From positions 1 to 59,902 of the forward strand of contig DATJXA010000132.1 of the NCBI GenBank assembly GCA_035500675.1: a stretch of DNA of 59,902 nt, written 5' to 3'. Origin of the DNA: Bacteroidota bacterium. GTDB taxonomy: Bacteria > Bacteroidota > Ignavibacteria > UBA10030 > UBA8401. Of this stretch, positions 2,380-42,031 are shown one piece after another; within the stretch, counting starts at the first letter, position 1, and the number at the start of each line of letters is the position of its first letter. The translations under genes were made by a program, and so were the position numbers. A model generated the notes under the pieces. The model saw only the letters and a program-made list of their open reading frames with translations. It had not been told where the DNA came from and made no database searches.

Positions 2380-3183
2380 GTGACCCGACCGAAAAAATCT
2401 CTCGGACAAAATTTTCTCCACGATGCAAACATTGCGAGAAAAATTGTCCGGTCTATGAATTTATCAGCATCGGACCGCGTCCTTGAGATCGGCCCCGGAA
2501 AAGGGGCGCTGACCTCCTTGCTGCTGGATGAACTTCAAACATTGGCCGCCGTAGAGATCGATACTGTCCTTGCGGAAGAGCTCAAAAGGAAATTTGGAAA
2601 AAAGTTGAAGCTGTATCATGACGACGTGCTCCATCTCGATCTTGGCTCAATGGCGGGTGCCATGGGAGGGAACATCCGCATCGTCGGGAACATTCCTTAC
2701 AATATCACGAGCGCTATCATCTTTTGGATCATCGACGCTTCCTCGTTCGTTTCCGATTGCACTCTTATGATGCAGCGTGAAGTTGCACAGCGGCTTGTTG
2801 CGAAGCCGCGTACGAAAGATTACGGGATATTGTCGGTGATGGCGCAATATTATTCTACCCCTTCGCTCCTCTTTACAGTCTCTCCCGCGTGTTTTTTCCC
2901 CGAACCGGAGGTGACGTCTGCGGTGGTCGCGCTTAACTTTGAAAAACCGAACGAGAAAAGGGCTGCGGACGATGTGTTGTTCCGGAGTGTTGTAAGGGCG
3001 ACATTCGGCAAAAGAAGAAAAACTTTACGGAACGGGCTTCGGGGCATGAACATTCCGGCTGCCGTTCTTTCGCGACTTTCGGCAAACCTTGATCGCCGCC
3101 CTGAGGAGCTTTCCGTCGCGGAATTTACGACATTGGCAGACGAGTTGGCGGATCTCGAGATAACAGCTCCACCGCTTAAGTAA
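2380..3183 (+). CDS. rsmA: 16S rRNA m6,2A1518/1519 dimethyltransferase RsmA/KsgA
   Basis: KKSLGQNFL, VLEIGPGKG, GNIPYNIT, MMQREVAQRL, FGKRRKTLRN motifs. Confidence 0.97.
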   Translation: MTRPKKSLGQNFLHDANIARKIVRSMNLSASDRVLEIGPGKGALTSLLLDELQTLAAVEIDTVLAEELKRKFGKKLKLYHDDVLHLDLGSMAGAMGGNIRIVGNIPYNITSAIIFWIIDASSFVSDCTLMMQREVAQRLVAKPRTKDYGILSVMAQYYSTPSLLFTVSPACFFPEPEVTSAVVALNFEKPNEKRAADDVLFRSVVRATFGKRRKTLRNGLRGMNIPAAVLSRLSANLDRRPEELSVAEFTTLADELADLEITAPPLK

Positions 3184-30974: not shown

Positions 30975-31629
30975 TCGACCCCAAAGGGGTCGAATTGTAC
31001 AGGACCGGGGCAACGCCCCGACTCATATTGGAAACAAGCCTCTATGAACCCTGAAAGGGTGAAACAATTATGTCAATCCCAGATATAACGTTCATCAAAT
31101 TTGATCTTGTATGCATTCAAAAATGCACGATACTCATCTTGAAAAATTTTCTTACGATGATGCTCTTCTTGGTTTGCAATATATTTTTTTACACGCTCAA
31201 CCTCAGATTGACCTACAGAAAATGCGCCATACCCGTTCTGCCATGCGAATTTGGACAAGAGCCCCCCTTTCGACTTGATCCATTTCGATGACCCGCGTTT
31301 GATTTCGCCTACTACCTTTGCGATAGAGAGATTGCGCGACAATGAAGAAAGAATATGCACATGATCTGCAACTCCTCCAACAATCAAAACGGGACAATCG
31401 AGATTTTTACACGTGCCGCCGAGATAGGCGTGTAATTCTTTGCGTACAGTTTTGTCAACGAGAAATGGGAACCTGTGCTTCGTCGAAAAAACAATGTGTA
31501 TCAGAACGTTCGCAAGTGATTGAGACATATCCCCCCCCCATATAACCCTTTCAGGGTTACTGATTAGTACGGTTTGTTGTGTGCCGAGGACGATGTCCTC
31601 GGTTGAATTATGCTTCCCCCTTGGGGAAG
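30975..31629. mobile_element. Y1 transposase flanked by inverted three-hairpin modules (REPtron-like unit)
   Basis: Module 30975-31060 (+) and module 31543-31629 (-) enclose tnpA, with ACCCT-GAA-AGGGT hairpins nearest the gene on both sides. Confidence 0.7.
31073..31528 (-). CDS. tnpA: IS200/IS605-superfamily Y1 (HUH) transposase, RAYT-like
   Basis: IHIVFSTKHR, HUH motif DHVHIL, SSKWI, WQNGYGAFSV, catalytic Tyr in KYIANQEEHH. No adjacent tnpB. Confidence 0.9.
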   Translation of the reverse strand: MSQSLANVLIHIVFSTKHRFPFLVDKTVRKELHAYLGGTCKNLDCPVLIVGGVADHVHILSSLSRNLSIAKVVGEIKRGSSKWIKSKGGLLSKFAWQNGYGAFSVGQSEVERVKKYIANQEEHHRKKIFQDEYRAFLNAYKIKFDERYIWD

Positions 31630-32484
31630 GTTTAGGCGTTATCCTTTTTTAATGATTTAATAAAATTCTTTGATGAAAATACTTCCCAATCAATAACTGC
31701 AACGACCCTGAAAGGGTCCCATATTCAAGGTCGGGGCAACGCCCTAACCTGAAACGATCTAAATACAATGATGAACCCCGAAGGGGTGATATATTTCTCT
31801 TCTCAGGAGTATCTTCCATTGTATTTCTTCTTAAGTATGTAACCCTTTCAGGGTAACACGGTAATACGATTTGTCGCACTCCGCGGGCAATGCCCTCGGT
31901 TACAGTATTCTTCCCCTGCGGGGAAGAATCATGCTTTACATTATTATATTAACCACAAAACATCGCACTCAGTTAACGCGTTGCTCCAATTCGGGAAATA
32001 ATTGTTTTCAATCAGAAAATGTGATGACCCTGAAAGGGTTCGATATTCAAAGGCGGGGCAACGCCCCAACCTGAAACGATTTAAATACAATGTTGGACCC
32101 CGAAGGGGTGATATATTTTTTTCCGCACGGATACCTTGTTTATGTTTTCTTGATTATGGAACCCTTTCAGGGTATCGTATTAATGGGTTTGTCGTTTTCG
32201 AGGGCATTGCCCTCGGTTACAATATCCTTCCCCCTTTGGGGAAGACGATGGCTTTATCTATTTTAGAAATGCAAGAAAATCTTTTAATAAAAATATTTCA
32301 CAATCAATAAATGTGACGACCCTGAAAGGGTTCGATATTCAAAGGCGGGGCAACGCCCCGACGAAGAGGATTCGACTATAATGATGAACCCCGAAGGGGT
32401 GATATATTTCTCTTCTCAGGAGTATCTTCACCTTCGTAGAAGAACACTTTTCAAGAGTGTAATAGCGCGAGATTATTCAACCGA

Positions 32485-34528: not shown

Positions 34529-36886
34529 TTATTTCACCAAACCGGATTTTTTCGTCAATGCAATGAACCTCGGTTCGGTTCGGATGTCATCCCACGCGTC
34601 GTCAATGAGGAGGTTCCCGAACCAGATGCTGTGGTCGTTAAAATCTTTCTCGAGCATTTCCAGGGCTTTTTCTTTATCCCCAAGCCCTGCATATATTCTG
34701 GCGATGTTGTATGCCGAACCGGTTCCTTCGTTGTACCTGCGCTCGTTCTCTTTCAGAAGCTTGAGGGCTTTGTCCCTCATGTTGTGCTTTGCATAGAAGT
34801 ATGCGAGAGAGGATATACATTCGCTCGAACGTCCCGACAACTCCACGGCTTTTTCGAGCTGTGCCTGGGCATCGGAATATTTTTTTAAGCGATTATTTGC
34901 GATCCCTTGCCATTCATACCCGACCGCAAACGACGGGTCGAGCTCGACCGATTTTGTAAAATAGCCAAGCGCGTCTTCATACTGTCCGCGAAGAAGCGGG
35001 ATGAGGCCTAAGTTAATTTCGATGATGGGGGAAAACGGGTCGAGCTCGTGCGCCTTTTGGATCATTGCCGAGGCCTCTTCTGTACGCCACGTCCTAACAA
35101 GCATGATGTTGTACCAGTGATACGCCGTCCCGTACCGCGGGTTCAGCGAAATGGCTTGTTTGAATTCCCGCTCCGCATCATCATATTTCCATTCTTGAAC
35201 ATAGCAGAGTCCGATTGTGGCGTGAGCTTCTGCGAGCGAATTATCGAGATCGAGCGCGCGACGGGCAGATGCCAATGCCATGGGCACCGTGACACTTGTC
35301 GGGATTCCAGAATATTGCGATTGGAGGACGTAACAGTCTGCCAGCCCCGAATAGGCGAGCGCATAGGTCGAATCCAGCACAATTGCTTGATTCAAATATC
35401 CGATCGCGCGCACTATCGAAGCGGCGGTGCGTTTGTTCCAGTAATACCGTCCTTGCAGATATAACTGATATGCCTGAGTGTTAACAGTGGATGGCTGGGT
35501 AATTTTTTCCCGAGTCTCCGTCGAGAGCCCGATGCCAAGCTTCGATGACACGTCGTCAGTGATTTGCTGCTGCAACGAAAGAAGGTCCGTCATCGAGGAA
35601 TGATAAAGATTGCCCCACAATTCCGATTGCCGGTTGACGTCGATCAGATCGACCTGAACGTCCAGGACCTGGCCACGATGAGTGATCGTTCCCGACAGAA
35701 CCGCCCCGACATTTAATTTCGACCCGATGGCCTGAATGTCCATCTCTTTTCCCTTGAACCGGAACACGGTGCTGCGTGGAATGACCCTCAACGATGATAT
35801 TTTCGTGAGATTGTTGATGATACTTTCGGTGAGGCCGTCCGAAAGATATTCCTGTTCCTGCGACGCGCCGGCATTTTCAAACGGAAGCACCGCGAGTGAA
35901 TCGATCCCCTTCGCGCGGCCGCTGTAAAAATAGGTCGCTAGTGCTATCAACACCACTGCGAGGCCCACGGAGCCGAAGATGAAAAAATTTTTCTTCGGCA
36001 TAGACTTTTTAACAACGGGATGATCTTGTTCCACCGGAGGAGCGGCCGCATCGACCATCGATGGACGCATGACTCTCGACGTTTTCTTTCGCTCGCGCCG
36101 CAATTCGCTCACCATGTCGGCGACCGATTGATAACGATCCTCCGGATTTTTTTCGAGCGCCCGTGCGATAATGCGCTCAAGTTCCGGAGATGCTCCCGGT
36201 TGAACCTTCGTTAACGGCGTCGGTTCCTCGTTGACGATGGAATAGACCATTGCTGCTTCATGTTCGCCGCGAAAAGGTAGCTTGCCCGTCAACATCTCGA
36301 AGAACAAGACGCCAAAGGAAAAAATGTCGCTCCTGTAATCGACTTCTCCTGCCTGGATTTGTTCCGGCGCCATGTAGCCGAGCGTTCCAACCGTGCTGGA
36401 GGTGCGTGTGAGCTTCAACGATCCTTTCAGCTTTGCCAACCCGAAATCCATCACCTTGACCTGGCCCTTCGAGGTCAGCATGATATTGTCGGCTTTGATA
36501 TCCCTGTGGACGATCCCTTTGGAATGAGCTTCTTGCAGCGCCTCGCCGATCTGCGCCGCTATAACGATCGCATCGTCGGATTTTGCAAAGGGAATCTTCT
36601 CGCCGAGAGTTCCGCCGTCGATGTATTCCATTGCGATGAAGAGCTGTCCCTCGTGTTCCTCGACTCCGTAGATCGTGCAGATATTGGGATGATTGAGTCC
36701 CGCTGCGGCTTGCGCTTCCTGAAGAAAACGTGCCTTTGCAGTCTCATCCTTCGTCACCCTGTCGGGAAGAAATTTAAGAGCCACGTTGCGGTTCAGCGTC
36801 GTATCGTGGGCCTTGTAGACAACGCCCATTCCTCCTTCGCCGAGCTTTTCAAGAATTTTATAGTGAGAAATAGTTTGTCCTATCAC
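34529..36886 (-). CDS. Hanks-type Ser/Thr protein kinase (STK2) with TM, TolB-N-like domain and TPRs
   Basis: GTG start; LGEGGMG, VALK, HRDIKADN, DFG; TM segment; SLAVLPFEN...YLSDGLTESII; TPRs. Confidence 0.95.
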   Translation of the reverse strand: MIGQTISHYKILEKLGEGGMGVVYKAHDTTLNRNVALKFLPDRVTKDETAKARFLQEAQAAAGLNHPNICTIYGVEEHEGQLFIAMEYIDGGTLGEKIPFAKSDDAIVIAAQIGEALQEAHSKGIVHRDIKADNIMLTSKGQVKVMDFGLAKLKGSLKLTRTSSTVGTLGYMAPEQIQAGEVDYRSDIFSFGVLFFEMLTGKLPFRGEHEAAMVYSIVNEEPTPLTKVQPGASPELERIIARALEKNPEDRYQSVADMVSELRRERKKTSRVMRPSMVDAAAPPVEQDHPVVKKSMPKKNFFIFGSVGLAVVLIALATYFYSGRAKGIDSLAVLPFENAGASQEQEYLSDGLTESIINNLTKISSLRVIPRSTVFRFKGKEMDIQAIGSKLNVGAVLSGTITHRGQVLDVQVDLIDVNRQSELWGNLYHSSMTDLLSLQQQITDDVSSKLGIGLSTETREKITQPSTVNTQAYQLYLQGRYYWNKRTAASIVRAIGYLNQAIVLDSTYALAYSGLADCYVLQSQYSGIPTSVTVPMALASARRALDLDNSLAEAHATIGLCYVQEWKYDDAEREFKQAISLNPRYGTAYHWYNIMLVRTWRTEEASAMIQKAHELDPFSPIIEINLGLIPLLRGQYEDALGYFTKSVELDPSFAVGYEWQGIANNRLKKYSDAQAQLEKAVELSGRSSECISSLAYFYAKHNMRDKALKLLKENERRYNEGTGSAYNIARIYAGLGDKEKALEMLEKDFNDHSIWFGNLLIDDAWDDIRTEPRFIALTKKSGLVK

Positions 36887-37023
36887 AATATTTTTCTCCC
36901 CCTCCCGCCAAAGAACGGCGGGATGCTCAAATTTTCAATCCCGCAAAAAAGCTGCGGGAGAAAATTTGGCACTTCGCCGAGCTTCTCGAGGATTTTATAG
37001 TGCGATATTGTCTGTCCGATCAT
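36835..37023 (-). repeat. 52-nt direct repeat (36972-37023 vs 36835-36886) flanking an 85-nt double-hairpin insert
   Basis: 43/52 identical; 8 synonymous changes plus ATG/GTG. Hairpins at 36928-36968 and 36903-36923. Confidence 0.9.
36883..37023 (-). CDS. Unannotated 46-aa leader ORF duplicating the STK2 N-terminus
   Basis: MIGQTISHYKILEKLGE-VPNFLPQLFCGIENLSIPPFFGGRGRKIL*. TGA (36885-36883) overlaps the STK2 GTG. An alternative ATG lies at 37026. Confidence 0.6.
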   Translation of the reverse strand: MIGQTISHYKILEKLGEVPNFLPQLFCGIENLSIPPFFGGRGRKIL

Positions 37024-37034
37024 CATCGCTTCAA

Positions 37035-39719
37035 TTATTTATTTTCCACCAGATTCTGCCAGTTAAAAATGAGCGACCCGTTTTTCAGAGATTGAGTGTT
37101 CAATGTCCGCGTCACCAAAATTTGTTTTCCGTCTCTCGAGATATCCATGACGTTTGTCTGAAATCCGGCGTCGATTTTAAACAGCTGTTTCGTTTGGCCG
37201 ACATTGATCTCATTTCCCGAGATGGTGACAGGGACTGAAAATACTTGCTGGTTATTGAGCGTGTACATAATCTCCCTGCCGTTATTGAGCCATCGGGGCT
37301 GCTCGCCACCGTTCGTCGATACCTGCCACTTGCTCGGTGAGCCGTCGGTCGGCCTGATGTAGACTTCGTTTTTGCCCGTTTCATCCGATTCATACGCGAA
37401 CCATTTTCCATCGGGCGAAAATGTCGCGAGCCATTCGTCAAACTCGGAGGTCAATAACGGAGTGTATTTCTTTTCTCTTATGTCGTACATCCCGACATCC
37501 CATTTTTGCACACCTTGCGTGTTGATGGACAGAAGCAATTTATTCCCATCATGTGAGACGTCGGTGACATAGGAACTGGTGTTCCCGGCATAGATCAAGT
37601 GCTCATCGCCTGTACCGTTGCTGTTTTTCTCGTAGATGCTGAAAACCCCGCTGGCGTTCGAGCTGAAATACACCTTGCTGTCGTCCGGCGACCATGAAGG
37701 GACGAGCTCGGTGCCTTTATCAAATGTAAGACGCGTGTCGGAGTTACGCTGAGTGTCATGGATCCATAAATCGGTATTCTTTGCCGATTCGTCCAATGCA
37801 TCGGTCGCAACGTATTTTCCGTCGGTGGAAAACGCCGCCCACGTTGTCGCAACTTTTGATTGCATCGTATGTTGGATGACGCCGTTCGCACCGTAAATGA
37901 CCATTTCATTATCGGATTTTGCCGTGCCGAGATACGCCAGTCGACCATCCCTCGAAAATGAAAAAGTCCCTTTGCTTCGCACCCTTGCGTATAAAACGCT
38001 TTCCAAAATCGGGATCGGCTCGCCTTTCAATTCCAAGGAACCGTCGTCGAATCGTTGGGCAAGCAAAGAATTTTGTTTATAATAGAGCACCCATCCGCGA
38101 TTGTAAACGATATTACTCGATGCGTGGACGACAATTTTATTCTTCGTATCGCCGAGAGAAGCTACACGAATATGGTCTGCGTCTTCCTCGAGCGACGGTT
38201 TGCTTGTCTGGACAGTGTAAAAGAAGTGGTCCCCGTCGGGCAAAAAATATGGCCAGCGATGATTTACTTCATACTCGGTCGAGTCGAGCCGAGTAAGTTG
38301 CTTCGCTGTTCCTCCTGCCGAAGAGACTTGATACAACGGCCCACTGCTGCTCGGCGCGAAGATAATCACCCCATCCTTATTCCACGTCCCGCCTCTTCCG
38401 TCCGTTGCGTCACAAACGGTGAATGACGGTCCCCCTTTTGCATCGATCTTTTTGAGCTTTCCGTCAGCAAAGTACGCGATCATTCTGCTGTCATACGACC
38501 AAAACGGATAGGACGCATTTTCAGTGCCCGATAAAAGCAAAGGCGTCGGTGCATCCAGTGGCCGCACCCAGAGGTGATCTTTCCCGAGAGAGTCGACAGC
38601 GACGAACGCAATCATGCTGCCGTCGGGGGAAATTTCCAGATGGCCTCCGACAGTTGAATTGAAAATATTTCCTTTAGGGGCTTCGAACGAGAGTTGAATC
38701 AACTCAGGCCCTTTCTTAATAAATAGAAAGTACCATCCTACGACAGCGATCAGCAACACCGACAAAGCAATCGAGGCAGCCATCCAAACATTGAAAGGTA
38801 ATGCCTTCTTCTGCGGAAGCGTTTCGTATTCCGCAGTTTGAGGAGCGATCCTCGTCCCGGATGAAATCTGGCTCTTGCGCACGGCAAGAATTCTGCTTGC
38901 GGTCTGGCGGCTCGATTCACGTTTAAGTTTTCGAAGATCCTTGACGATCTCCTTTGCGGATTGATACCGCTCGTCCGGGTCTTTTGCGAGACATTCAAGG
39001 AGAATTGCATCGAGGTCGGTGGGCACGTCTGGCTTGAGGATCGAGATCGGTTCGGCATCGACATTGACGATCTCGTAAATGATGGCGGTCTCATGAACGC
39101 CTTTGAACGGCGATTGCCCCGATATCAATTCATACAACAGAACGCCGAAGGAAAAGATATCGGTGCGGTGATCGACGTTGAACCCCTGCACCTGCTCGGG
39201 CGACATATACCCCACTGTTCCGACGGTATTGCCTTCCCGTGTCAGACGCGAAACGCCCTGAAGTTTCGCCAGGCCGAAATCCATGATCTGCACGAGACCG
39301 TCCTTCCGCAGCATCACATTTTCCGGCTTGATGTCCCGATGGACGATCCCCTTTTCATGGGCGGCAGCTAATCCCTCCGCAACCTGGATCCCGATGTCGA
39401 TCGATTGTTTGAAAGAAATATTGTTCTTCCTGTCGCGCAGCGTTTCACCGTCGATGAATTCCATTGCGATGAACAACTGGTCTTCATATTCCGCGACATC
39501 ATAGATCGTGCAGATATTGGGATGATTCAGAGTAGCGGCGGCTTTCGCCTCCTGCATAAATCGCTGGCGGTCGGACTCAGTGGAAGAGACGCTCTTCGTC
39601 AAAAATTTAAGTGCAACAAACCTGTCGAGTTTGGTGTCCCTGGCTTTATAGACGATGCCCATGCCACCTTCGCCAAGTTGCTCGAGAATTTCATACTGAA
39701 GAATCGTTTTACCAATCAT
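37035..39719 (-). CDS. Hanks-type Ser/Thr protein kinase (STK3) with TM and TolB/PD40 beta-propeller
   Basis: LGEGGMG, VALK, HRDIKPEN, DFG; TM; ISPDG, FWSYD, WSPDD, FSPDG repeats. Confidence 0.95.
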   Translation of the reverse strand: MIGKTILQYEILEQLGEGGMGIVYKARDTKLDRFVALKFLTKSVSSTESDRQRFMQEAKAAATLNHPNICTIYDVAEYEDQLFIAMEFIDGETLRDRKNNISFKQSIDIGIQVAEGLAAAHEKGIVHRDIKPENVMLRKDGLVQIMDFGLAKLQGVSRLTREGNTVGTVGYMSPEQVQGFNVDHRTDIFSFGVLLYELISGQSPFKGVHETAIIYEIVNVDAEPISILKPDVPTDLDAILLECLAKDPDERYQSAKEIVKDLRKLKRESSRQTASRILAVRKSQISSGTRIAPQTAEYETLPQKKALPFNVWMAASIALSVLLIAVVGWYFLFIKKGPELIQLSFEAPKGNIFNSTVGGHLEISPDGSMIAFVAVDSLGKDHLWVRPLDAPTPLLLSGTENASYPFWSYDSRMIAYFADGKLKKIDAKGGPSFTVCDATDGRGGTWNKDGVIIFAPSSSGPLYQVSSAGGTAKQLTRLDSTEYEVNHRWPYFLPDGDHFFYTVQTSKPSLEEDADHIRVASLGDTKNKIVVHASSNIVYNRGWVLYYKQNSLLAQRFDDGSLELKGEPIPILESVLYARVRSKGTFSFSRDGRLAYLGTAKSDNEMVIYGANGVIQHTMQSKVATTWAAFSTDGKYVATDALDESAKNTDLWIHDTQRNSDTRLTFDKGTELVPSWSPDDSKVYFSSNASGVFSIYEKNSNGTGDEHLIYAGNTSSYVTDVSHDGNKLLLSINTQGVQKWDVGMYDIREKKYTPLLTSEFDEWLATFSPDGKWFAYESDETGKNEVYIRPTDGSPSKWQVSTNGGEQPRWLNNGREIMYTLNNQQVFSVPVTISGNEINVGQTKQLFKIDAGFQTNVMDISRDGKQILVTRTLNTQSLKNGSLIFNWQNLVENK

Positions 39720-39862
39720 CGCATAATTTCCTTTCCCCTCCCGCCGAAAAACGGCGGGATTCTCAAAATCACTGCCACTCGCTGAGTAGGGCTCGTGGGT
39801 GATTTTGGAACTTCGCCCAGTTGCTCGAGAATTTCATACTGAAGAATTGTTTTACCGATCAC
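39668..39862 (-). repeat. 52-nt direct repeat (39811-39862 vs 39668-39719) flanking a 91-nt double-hairpin insert
   Basis: 48/52 identical; 3 synonymous changes plus GTG/ATG. Hairpins at 39764-39807 and 39739-39759. Confidence 0.9.
39716..39862 (-). CDS. Unannotated 48-aa leader ORF duplicating the STK3 N-terminus
   Basis: AAGGAG RBS then GTG; MIGKTILQYEILEQLGE-VPKSPTSPTQRVAVILRIPPFFGGRGKEIMR*. TGA overlaps the STK3 ATG (ATGA). Confidence 0.65.
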   Translation of the reverse strand: MIGKTILQYEILEQLGEVPKSPTSPTQRVAVILRIPPFFGGRGKEIMR

Positions 39863-39945
39863 AAGTCGCTCCTTTCAAACTGATAACTGCCACCGCACTC
39901 TACCGAACCCTCGATGTTAAACAAGAGAAGATAGGAGAAATCGTT

Positions 39946-40689
39946 TCAATGAGTGAACCATTCTGCCGTAAGACAGCGGTACACTTTTGTCGTCAGATCC
40001 TCGCTTGTCGCCGATGTTGTCGTCGCGCTCGCGTGAGAAACCCGCCAGCGGACCGAAGCCGGTAAAATTTTATAGATCGATTCCAACAGCTCGCCGATCG
40101 AATGGATACCGGGCGACTGAAGTTCAACGGTCTCGTCCCAGAATGAAATGACGTGGAACTTGTGCTGTTGACGGAGAAGGATCAGGTCGATGAACCCTTT
40201 ATGAGCTTTATATTTTGGATGGATCTCAGACGCGAAAAGAGCTTCGAATGTATTGACTTGATCTTCCTGGACAGTGAGCTCAAGGATCTGAACGGCAAAC
40301 GGTTTCGCTTTGAGCTTGCTGATGTTCTCCGAGCCGGCGACGGATCCGTCAAATCGTTCGATTGTCGGCTCTATTTGGATCGGAGTGTATTCGAGAGACA
40401 GGTCTTCCGTCAACTCCAGTTTCCATTCGTTTGAATCGGCAAAATATGGCCGGAGCGAATCGACCAATTTAGTATACAAGCCGCTCTTTTCATAGTCTTC
40501 CGAATCTTTGCGGGATTTCCAGATTGTGAGGGAAATACATTCCTGCGGTTTGTCGGTATTTTGGAGCAGCGAGGCAAATGCGCATCCCTTTGTGGAGCGA
40601 AGAGCAGAGAGCACCGACTGCGCATAGGCCTCGGCATTCTTCTCCGATTCCTCGGCGCGTATGATGTGAGTGACAAGCCTTAGAAACAT
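39946..40689 (-). CDS. Tandem ABM (dimeric alpha/beta-barrel) domain protein
   Basis: ALRSTKGCAFASLLQ...ISLTIWKSRKDSEDYE; second repeat HKGFIDLILL...VISFWD. Confidence 0.75.
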   Translation of the reverse strand: MFLRLVTHIIRAEESEKNAEAYAQSVLSALRSTKGCAFASLLQNTDKPQECISLTIWKSRKDSEDYEKSGLYTKLVDSLRPYFADSNEWKLELTEDLSLEYTPIQIEPTIERFDGSVAGSENISKLKAKPFAVQILELTVQEDQVNTFEALFASEIHPKYKAHKGFIDLILLRQQHKFHVISFWDETVELQSPGIHSIGELLESIYKILPASVRWRVSHASATTTSATSEDLTTKVYRCLTAEWFTH

Positions 40690-40732: not shown

Positions 40733-42031
40733 TTATTGCACTCGCTTAATGACCATCATCGTGATGTCGTCGGATTGGGGATGAGCGCCGGCATGTTTTC
40801 TCACTTCTTTGACCACCGCGTCGATGATGTCCTCGGCCGAACGGTTCCGTTGTTCGAGCAAGAGAGTTTGAAGGCGTTCATCCCCAAACTGCTCTTGATT
40901 GCTGTTCATCGCTTCGCTCACGCCGTCGGATTGGACGACCAGAATGTCCCCGGCGCGCATATCGATCCGTTCATCTTCATATTCTGCCTGAGGGAGTAAT
41001 CCGATCATCAGTCCGCCAGTTTTCAGCCGCTGGATCGTCCCATCGCTGCCGATCAAAAAAGGCCAGTCGTGACCGGCGTTGGAATAGTGTATGTTGTGAT
41101 GTTCGACGTCGATGATGCCGTAGAAAAGCGTTGCAAACTTTTCGGGGCTTGTGCTTTCGTACAGCAATTTATTCGAGCGCAAAAGACATTCGGAGGGCGC
41201 TTGAGACACCAGCGTCTGCCCTCGAAGCGTCGCTTGAAGGTTTGCCATGAGGAGCGATGCCGGCAGCCCTTTGCCCGAAACATCTCCGAGGCATAACGCC
41301 ATGCGTCCGTCGCTTTTCGGAATGAAATCGAAATAGTCGCCGCCGATAGACTGAGCGGCGATCGTGCGCGCAAAGATGTCGTACCCTTCAAGGCCCGGGT
41401 TGCTCCGGGGCAAAAGGTCTCGCTGGATTTTTGCCGCGAGGCCGACCTCCTGCTGCATCTTGATATACAGTTTCTCCTCTTCGATCAATCGGGCGTTCTC
41501 GACGACCTGCGCGGATTGCGCCGAGATGATTGCGAGAAGACGCTGGTCGTCCGTGTTGAACGATTGTCCTTCCTTCTTATTATAAACGGTGAGGACGCCG
41601 CGCAGCTCGGATTTGACGATCAAGGGCACGCACAAAAGCGTTCTGATATTGTCGTCCCAGTGTACACCTCGGAAACGTACGTCGTTTGCCGGATCGTCCA
41701 CGCTCAGCGGTTTTTTATTCAGGTGCATCCAACCGATCAACGCCTGGTGCATGTGAAATGCCGGCGCGCCCGCTGAAGACACCATCGTGCGGATCAGCGT
41801 CTTCATCGACTTCTGCTCTTCTTCCACCAGTGTGATGACACCTTGTTCCGCGTTGACTGCCCTGAGAGATTTCCGGATCAGCGTCTGCATGATCTCTTCG
41901 GCGTTCAACGAAGCGCTGATGGCCCGCGCGATGTCGTTGAGAATGGAAAGTTCTTCAACCGCACGGCGAAGCCTGCGCACTTCATCTTGAAGCGCATCGA
42001 TGGATTGAGTGGGTTGAGGTTTTTCAGCCAT
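40733..42031 (-). CDS. GAF + SpoIIE/PP2C Ser/Thr phosphatase (RsbU-like)
   Basis: GAF domain; IGGDYFD, GDVSGKGLPA, SNAGH, SDGVSEA, SDDITM. Confidence 0.93.
   Translation of the reverse strand: MAEKPQPTQSIDALQDEVRRLRRAVEELSILNDIARAISASLNAEEIMQTLIRKSLRAVNAEQGVITLVEEEQKSMKTLIRTMVSSAGAPAFHMHQALIGWMHLNKKPLSVDDPANDVRFRGVHWDDNIRTLLCVPLIVKSELRGVLTVYNKKEGQSFNTDDQRLLAIISAQSAQVVENARLIEEEKLYIKMQQEVGLAAKIQRDLLPRSNPGLEGYDIFARTIAAQSIGGDYFDFIPKSDGRMALCLGDVSGKGLPASLLMANLQATLRGQTLVSQAPSECLLRSNKLLYESTSPEKFATLFYGIIDVEHHNIHYSNAGHDWPFLIGSDGTIQRLKTGGLMIGLLPQAEYEDERIDMRAGDILVVQSDGVSEAMNSNQEQFGDERLQTLLLEQRNRSAEDIIDAVVKEVRKHAGAHPQSDDITMMVIKRVQ

Follow-up and report, generated by a model that had tools for sequence, protein, structure and literature searches.

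On contig DATJXA010000132.1 of a Bacteroidota bacterium from Ignavibacteria (assembly GCA_035500675.1; the complete 60-kb stretch, 59,902 nt, is called the window below) we have analyzed a 48-codon open reading frame (ORF) located immediately upstream of STK3, a gene for a Hanks-type Ser/Thr kinase. This leader ORF begins with a copy of the first codons of STK3 and continues through a structured RNA up to the kinase start codon; judging from the sequence, we interpret it, with moderate confidence, as one unit of a relay leader, in which ribosomes would terminate and reinitiate across structured RNA. The leader belongs to a widespread, apparently undescribed device located before kinases of the MIGxTIxxYxIxExLGEGGMG family, and no description of a leader copying the N-terminus of its own gene was found in the literature. 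Two features were missed by the first-pass annotation of this DNA: at the core of the element lies a conserved RNA motif, and the units are repeated in tandem with variable copy number.

Anatomy of the leader units and their RNA motif

The leader, STK3, the second kinase gene STK2 and the genes upstream all lie on the minus strand (Table 1). As stated in the first-pass annotation, the leader has a strong ribosome-binding site (AAGGAG), and its first 17 codons repeat the N-terminus of STK3 with three synonymous changes. The gap between AAGGAG and GTG at 39862 is 6 nt. Indeed, this N-terminal copy (N-copy) differs from the STK3 start (39719..39668) in four positions out of 52, corresponding to GTG/ATG, ATC/ATT, ACA/ACG, and CTG/CTT, the last three being synonymous. 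The spacer between the N-copy and the kinase start is 91 nt long, and the leader ends with ...CGA TGA, the stop codon (39718-39716) overlapping the STK3 start as ATGA at 39719-39716, also in agreement with the earlier description. The overlap is automatic, since these kinases begin with Met-Ile (ATG ATx), and hence is uninformative by itself, the informative feature being the reading frame. In the 60-kb window only five places match the 52-mer with at most 16 mismatches, and all of them are kinase starts or leaders.

STK2 is preceded by a leader of the same kind, which ends with TTG TGA on the STK2 start (GTGA at 36886-36883). The STK2 pair (37023 vs 36886) has nine mismatches, that is, the start codon and eight synonymous changes with no non-synonymous ones, so that the divergence in 52 nt is lower in the STK3 pair (four vs nine), as had been noted previously.

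Table 1. Features of the STK3 and STK2 leaders and their surroundings, in window coordinates
Feature	Position	Strand	Evidence or remark
Shine-Dalgarno (SD) sequence AAGGAG of STK3 leader	39869..39874	-	read directly; 6-nt gap, then GTG at 39862-39860
STK3 leader ORF, 48 aa, GTG start	39716..39862	-	homologous short ORFs annotated as genes on other contigs
N-copy in STK3 leader, 52 nt = first 17 codons (+1 nt) of STK3	39811..39862	-	
74-nt RNA motif S, STK3 leader	39738..39811	-	covariance-model match 91.5 bits, E 2e-19; single-sequence fold
Hairpin 1 (STK3)	39811-39759	-	about 19 pairs, tandem G.A motif, U-rich loop 39794-39779
Hairpin 2 (STK3)	39758-39740	-	CCCGCCG/CGGCGGG
Unit tail with weak SD (AAGGA) for STK3 start	39720..39737	-	read directly
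STK3, Hanks-type Ser/Thr kinase + PD40/TolB-like beta-propeller, 894 aa	37035..39719	-	Pfam Pkinase 1.8e-55, PD40 5e-24
STK2 leader, 46-47 aa	36883..37026 (starts 37026/37023)	-	TGA overlaps STK2 GTG
Motif S, second copy, STK2 leader	36902..36972	-	covariance-model match 74.1 bits, E 2e-15; fold z-score -3.8
STK2, Ser/Thr kinase + TPR, 785 aa	34529..36886	-	
ABM-domain protein	39946-40689	-	upstream, same strand block
GAF-PP2C (SpoIIE) phosphatase	40733-42031	-	upstream, same strand block

Related loci were collected from Ignavibacteria/Bacteroidota and Zixibacteria metagenome-assembled genomes. A search with the leader peptide yielded four short ORFs annotated as genes on other contigs, and 84 further loci came from two scans, the first covering contigs of genomes and the second those of metagenomes. 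Defining a unit as an N-copy, a spacer, and the next kinase-type start, we obtained 55 distinct units from 93 loci, forming 51 sequence clusters.

The spacers of the STK3 and STK2 leaders (85–91 nt between the copies) align with each other and contain a 74-nt motif of two hairpins, hereinafter motif S. Hairpin 1 starts at exactly the base where the kinase copy ends. Throughout the family it has a variable covarying stem, two small bulges, an almost invariant CGAGC...GCGAG core, and a U-rich loop, and we interpret the core as tandem G.A pairs with a covarying pair on either side; hairpin 2 (CCCGCC/GGCGGG) is followed by GGGAG. An alignment of 29 spacers folds into two hairpins, with compensatory changes in 15 out of 23 predicted pairs. 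Given a hand-written structure, 98.5% of cells in a trimmed alignment of 74 columns are paired, compared to 84% in shuffled alignments and approximately 40% in slid ones; 17 of the 25 pairs are changed on both sides, and none of 500 shuffles attained the observed pairing. When 75 distinct sequences were aligned to the covariance model, 97.3% of cells were paired, and double changes were seen in 21 of the 25 pairs. The secondary structure is supported by compensatory changes beyond the controls. No match to Rfam was found, cmscan at E up to 10 over positions 36700-40000 having given chance-level matches only.

The motif was counted in the 60-kb window and in 333 kb of related loci. The window contains exactly two copies, those in the STK3 and STK2 leaders, and the spacers of both leaders constitute one structured-RNA family. 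The related loci contain 81 copies, 80 of them on the kinase sense strand (the lone antisense match is weak, 30.6 bits), and essentially all of them are situated between an N-copy and a kinase-type start. The orientation of the motif relative to the gene is a better argument about its strand than wobble pairs, the numbers of which (27 G-U vs 18 A-C) differ too weakly to decide. Motif S is a new candidate structured RNA, predicted to lie inside a translated frame.

Several units of 98–116 nt (L022:208-330 and 3047-3150, L050:1757-1860, L088:621-720) have a different, shorter spacer with no motif S and another small hairpin. They keep the same architecture and the ATGA frame, and so the architecture recurs with unrelated spacers.

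Reading frame and the proposed translational relay

The distance between the starts of the leader and the next frame equals 2 modulo 3 in 44 of the 51 clusters (binomial p 7e-15, for units that are not phylogenetically independent), and the stop codon of the leader falls precisely on the next start in 41 of 51 units. Among the coupled units we find 14 distinct lengths ranging from 98 to 218 nt, all of them 2 modulo 3, and therefore loops and tails have tolerated only those insertions and deletions whose length is divisible by three. Of the 55 spacers, 51 have an open leader frame, compared to 12 and 34 for the two other frames. Moreover, the junction between the spacer and the kinase copy varies, falling after nucleotide 12, 52, approximately 60, or 93, and identical spacer DNA is read in different frames depending on the junction class (GE|VPKSP.., GGM|SQN.., KF|QNSPR..; VPKSPTS.. 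vs QNSPR..), still ending on ATGA. This is selection on translation reaching the start codon rather than on the peptide tail, and speaks for ribosomes reading the leader as far as the kinase start. The coupling of a translated leader to the kinase, proposed in the first-pass annotation, gains comparative support from the frame and its openness being kept across the 14 lengths and several junction classes.

Two near-identical units, L049:1474-1626 and L051:1008-1159, differ by one G in the G-run of the tail (152 vs 151 nt), so that in L051 the leader loses the coupling frame; either a genuine variant or an error of sequencing could account for the difference.

A unit consists of three parts: a copy of the kinase start codon with the first 17 codons; the 74-nt two-hairpin RNA beginning at the junction; and a short tail with an SD sequence and the next start. 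According to the relay interpretation, ribosomes would load at the strong SD sequence (AAGGAG) of the first leader, translate the N-copy and melt both hairpins, terminate on the UGA of AUGA, and restart at, or free, the next start, belonging to a further leader unit or to the kinase, proceeding unit by unit until the kinase is reached. The STK2 leader, whose start is separated from the STK3 stop by 8 nt only (37027-37034) and has no good SD sequence, would be fed by ribosomes finishing STK3. Ribosomes coming from upstream across the structured RNA would then be required for kinase synthesis, or would adjust its level, and the hairpins might serve as a gate.

A number of observations weigh against this interpretation or limit its reach. 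No RNA sequencing run was found to contain the locus. An SD core of at least 4 nt is present in the tails of 41 out of 51 units, and a kinase start with its own SD sequence could be used independently of the leader, so the dependence of kinase translation on the leader may be partial. About ten of the 51 units are out of frame or contain a stop codon (L014, L011, L050, L064, L082, L093, L040, L058), and therefore the relay is dispensable or decaying in some genomes. The conservation of the frame could be partly inherited with a spreading cassette, and gene conversion from kinases suffices to explain why the N-copy retains its amino acids, even if it has no function. Finally, simple coupling does not explain the role of the conserved hairpins with their tandem G.A pairs and U-rich loop.

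Selection on the amino acids of the N-copy would also be explained if the leader N-terminus were joined to the kinase body by recoding, either via a –1 frameshift at CCAAAA before the hairpin or via a bypass from GAA to the second GAA. The kinase frame is indeed –1 relative to the leader frame and is open through the STK3 spacer, and many units have C CCA AAA immediately before the stable hairpin. However, the kinase frame contains stop codons in 21 out of 55 spacers, including that of STK2; the STK3 (U CCA AAA) and STK2 (CCA AAU) sequences are both poor slippery sites, the heptamer is not conserved, and no stop codon follows the putative take-off codon. We consider recoding very improbable: the frameshift fusion was rejected because of the interrupted kinase frame, and the ribosome bypass, on anatomy. 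The bypass in T4 gene 60 spans 50 nt, and we know of no precedent for one of 143–286 nt.

Classical attenuation was also rejected, as both hairpins fall within the leader ORF and a terminator is missing. The only terminator-like match in the leader was a weak partial stem of hairpin 1 lacking a proper T-run; the site counts were equal to the shuffle expectation.

Conservation, copy number, and possible spread of the units

The gene order in L008 and L009, that is, GAF-PP2C phosphatase, ABM protein, leader(s), and kinase, is the same as in the window, and L001–L006 contain the ABM gene, two leaders, and a kinase, with only the ABM gene seen upstream in L001. The different divergence of the STK3 and STK2 pairs had been tentatively ascribed to independent events of different age. 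As local duplications, such events find no support, given both the conservation of the STK3 leader at the syntenic position (L008, L009; after ABM in L001) and the fact that the two spacers belong to one structured-RNA family.

The ratio of non-synonymous to synonymous differences (pN/pS) across the pairs of N-copies and kinase starts is 0.12, with synonymous sites often saturated; for example, there are 12 synonymous differences and one non-synonymous in L007, and nine and zero, respectively, in L057. Syntenic leaders of different lineages also differ almost only synonymously (9:0 between the window and L009, 8:0 between the window and L093), and diverged leader copies retain exactly the residues kept by the kinase family. 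The N-copies evolve in concert with kinase starts: in L093, L008, and L009 the leader and kinase N segments share lineage-specific synonymous variants, and the middle N segment of two-unit arrays is of the K-type (the upstream type) in L001 and of the Q-type (the downstream type) in L045. These data support gene conversion, which had been suggested as the alternative to independent events. Most likely, the N-copies are kept kinase-like mainly by exchange with real kinase starts via gene conversion and gain or loss of units; a function of the leader peptide itself is less likely.

In some N segments (L048:1440-1475, L059:1440-1475, L083:80-150, L077:1790-1830) we observe a 30-nt in-frame insert of two mini-hairpins (GCGCC-AAA-GGCGC and TCCGCC-TCT-GGCGGA; APKAHPPLAD) between SHY and KILEKLGE, that is, a second small hairpin element tolerated within coding starts.

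The number of units varies from one to four in arrays on related contigs, so the unit is a variable-number tandem repeat with copy number differing among relatives. Adjacent units are near-identical in L001, L045, L079, and L008, and very different in L052, L058, L085, and L088. The K-type kinase of the window and L008 (L008:2879-6000) is absent in L001 (2043-2330) and L045 (1474-1760), where the K-type leader or leaders are left directly before the next, Q-type kinase; this looks like a loss of the kinase via recombination between repeated units.

As kinase 5' ends can be left behind by deletion in this way, the leader might be a dead remnant with no role, left untranslated after a partial 5' duplication or after the deletion of an upstream kinase gene. 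Decayed units do exist, such as L014 with an in-frame stop and L008:5713 with six non-synonymous changes, and synonymous-only differences could date from the time when the copy was a real gene start. On the other hand, the frame and openness statistics in effect already make such a relic unlikely; moreover, the first base of hairpin 1 invariably marks the right-hand boundary, syntenic leaders have accumulated almost only synonymous changes after the lineage splits, and the STK3 leader retains a strong SD sequence. We regard this explanation as improbable.

To check the copy number at the STK3 locus, we compared it with Logan unitigs (k=31) from two wetland metagenome runs. The unitigs end precisely at N position 45|46 and again past position 52, the depth of the spacer-plus-N unitig is approximately 2–2.5 times that of the flanks (82.6 vs 32–35 and 10.5 vs about 5), and a 53-nt unitig at single-copy depth is the junction expected at k=31 for a kinase-type N segment followed by a spacer. 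Hence the real locus most likely has at least two tandem leader units of 143 bp, as in L001, and the assembly (39668-39862) probably collapsed one of them; the STK2 leader is single-copy according to the unitigs. The locus does come from a metagenome assembly, and the unitig graph branches here, as it might if the duplicated 52 nt had resulted from joining two strain variants. Yet the same architecture is observed on independent contigs from many samples, and the unitig arithmetic agrees with a tandem repeat of which the assembly contains too few units rather than too many, making an assembly artefact the least credible of the explanations considered.

Another explanation is a selfish or neutral "start cassette" of hairpins, SD sequence, and fresh kinase 5' end, spreading among paralogous kinases by homologous recombination or gene conversion in the ultra-conserved first codons. 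The old start would be stranded, and the relay frame would be kept only because other frames damage kinase expression, with no regulatory benefit. In line with this, one spacer subtype is found with different N types and kinases, the spacer of the STK3 leader being 92% identical to those of L007, L001, and L049. L008 has two different kinases 3 kb apart whose spacers are closer to each other (92%) than to any other spacer, their N segments being locus-specific. The arrays stack heterogeneous units with all the junctions listed above, the repeats appear to mediate loss of a whole kinase (L001 and L045 without the K-type one), and the copy number ranges from one to four, with probably at least two units at the STK3 locus by unitig depth. 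Finally, at L054:640-830 the 74-nt motif is found in frame inside the kinase ORF (..LGE-VRKPPASASQRVAAVFRIPPYFGGS-SMGVV..), with no second N-terminal copy; this arrangement, which would break up the glycine-rich loop, represents an intermediate of insertion or else the product of a deletion. The spacer subtype and the downstream N segment, compared under the cassette model, show contradictory patterns in L001 and L045. What does not fit is that homology-driven spread needs no conserved structure, yet the hairpins covary across phyla and have an invariant tandem G.A motif and loop, and that the leader is stably kept at a syntenic site in diverged lineages. As the whole explanation, a cassette without regulatory benefit is rather doubtful; it is compatible with the relay mechanism, not exclusive of it, and alone leaves the conserved structure unexplained.

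The two could be combined, and slightly less doubtful, though still tentative, is a scheme in which a transposase-free, homology-driven start cassette repeatedly re-colonises the first codons of kinases, the old starts accumulate upstream as chained relay ORFs, and the hairpin RNA acts as a ribosome-gated riboregulator that makes the cassette useful or tolerated, giving one translational control for the whole kinase family.

Neighboring genes, known systems, and significance

No terminator-like site was found between the ABM gene and the STK3 leader, and a scan of the gene block for sigma-70 promoters and terminators gave nothing above shuffles, with no terminator- or promoter-like break inside. 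Both kinases with both leaders look like one translationally chained block downstream of the GAF-PP2C phosphatase and the ABM protein.

A gene for an IS200-like Y1 transposase (31073-31528, Pfam Y1_Tnp 2.8e-27) is located 8 kb away amid small GC-rich REP-like hairpins with 3–4-nt loops (30975-32430), and this region looks like a RAYT/REP cluster. REP/BIME elements, associated with RAYT (Y1) transposases, are small GC-rich hairpin repeats transcribed within operons, and the presence of such a cluster in the window is a point of likeness. However, the leader RNA motif has no sequence similarity to the hairpins at 30975-32430; within the window and the 333 kb of related loci, it differs from REP/BIME in having just two copies in 60 kb, each in a kinase leader, in lying in the sense orientation (80 of 81 copies in related loci), and in being covarying rather than identical in sequence.

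In operons, translational coupling by an overlapping stop and start (AUGA), e.g., in trpE-trpD, hands ribosomes on from one gene to the next. The leaders resemble this arrangement in the upstream stop overlapping the next start, but here the upstream frame is not a gene: it is a 48-codon copy of a gene start with a structured RNA, and it can be chained one to four times. The leader peptides of attenuation systems, such as trpL and hisL, are encoded by short ORFs with hairpins upstream of the regulated gene; in contrast to them, the leaders described here have no runs of regulatory codons and no U-tract terminator, and they continue across both hairpins as far as the start codon instead of ending ahead of the hairpins.

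Among described cases, the ppe2 leader of Mycobacterium tuberculosis comes nearest: its upstream ORF is under riboswitch control, expression of ppe2 requires translation of this ORF, and termination-reinitiation is the main route to PPE2 (PMC11260477). Common to both is a short translated upstream ORF in a structured leader RNA, translation being predicted from sequence in our case. The ppe2 leader differs in having a known B12 aptamer and an upstream ORF unrelated to the gene (PMC11260477), whereas the kinase leaders have a two-hairpin motif inside the upstream ORF, with no known ligand, a 17-codon copy of the own gene, and tandem units. Another similar case is mgtQ from the mgtC-mgtB intergenic region of Salmonella, a short ORF that overlaps stem-loops before the next operon gene and whose translation controls that gene (PMC8092293). 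This mechanism involves alternative stem-loops and ribosome-destabilising residues (PMC8092293), whereas in the kinase leaders we see no sign of alternative pairings, and the peptide tail is not conserved. Three features set the kinase leaders apart from ppe2 and mgtQ: the leader copies the start of its own gene, a new RNA motif lies within the putatively translated frame, and the units are repeated in tandem.

Ignavibacteria, Bacteroidota, Zixibacteria, and similar uncultured groups are rich in Hanks-type kinases, the control of which is almost uncharted. A recurrent device before such kinases is now defined by approximately 80 instances and a covariance model. It also has a practical side, as short-read assemblies collapse units of 137–146 bp, and gene callers miss the leaders or label them as hypothetical proteins. 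In the kinase arrays, repeats built of gene starts bring about the loss of genes, shifts in copy number, and concerted evolution, and, if the relay reading is true, they would add a natural example of chained termination-reinitiation.

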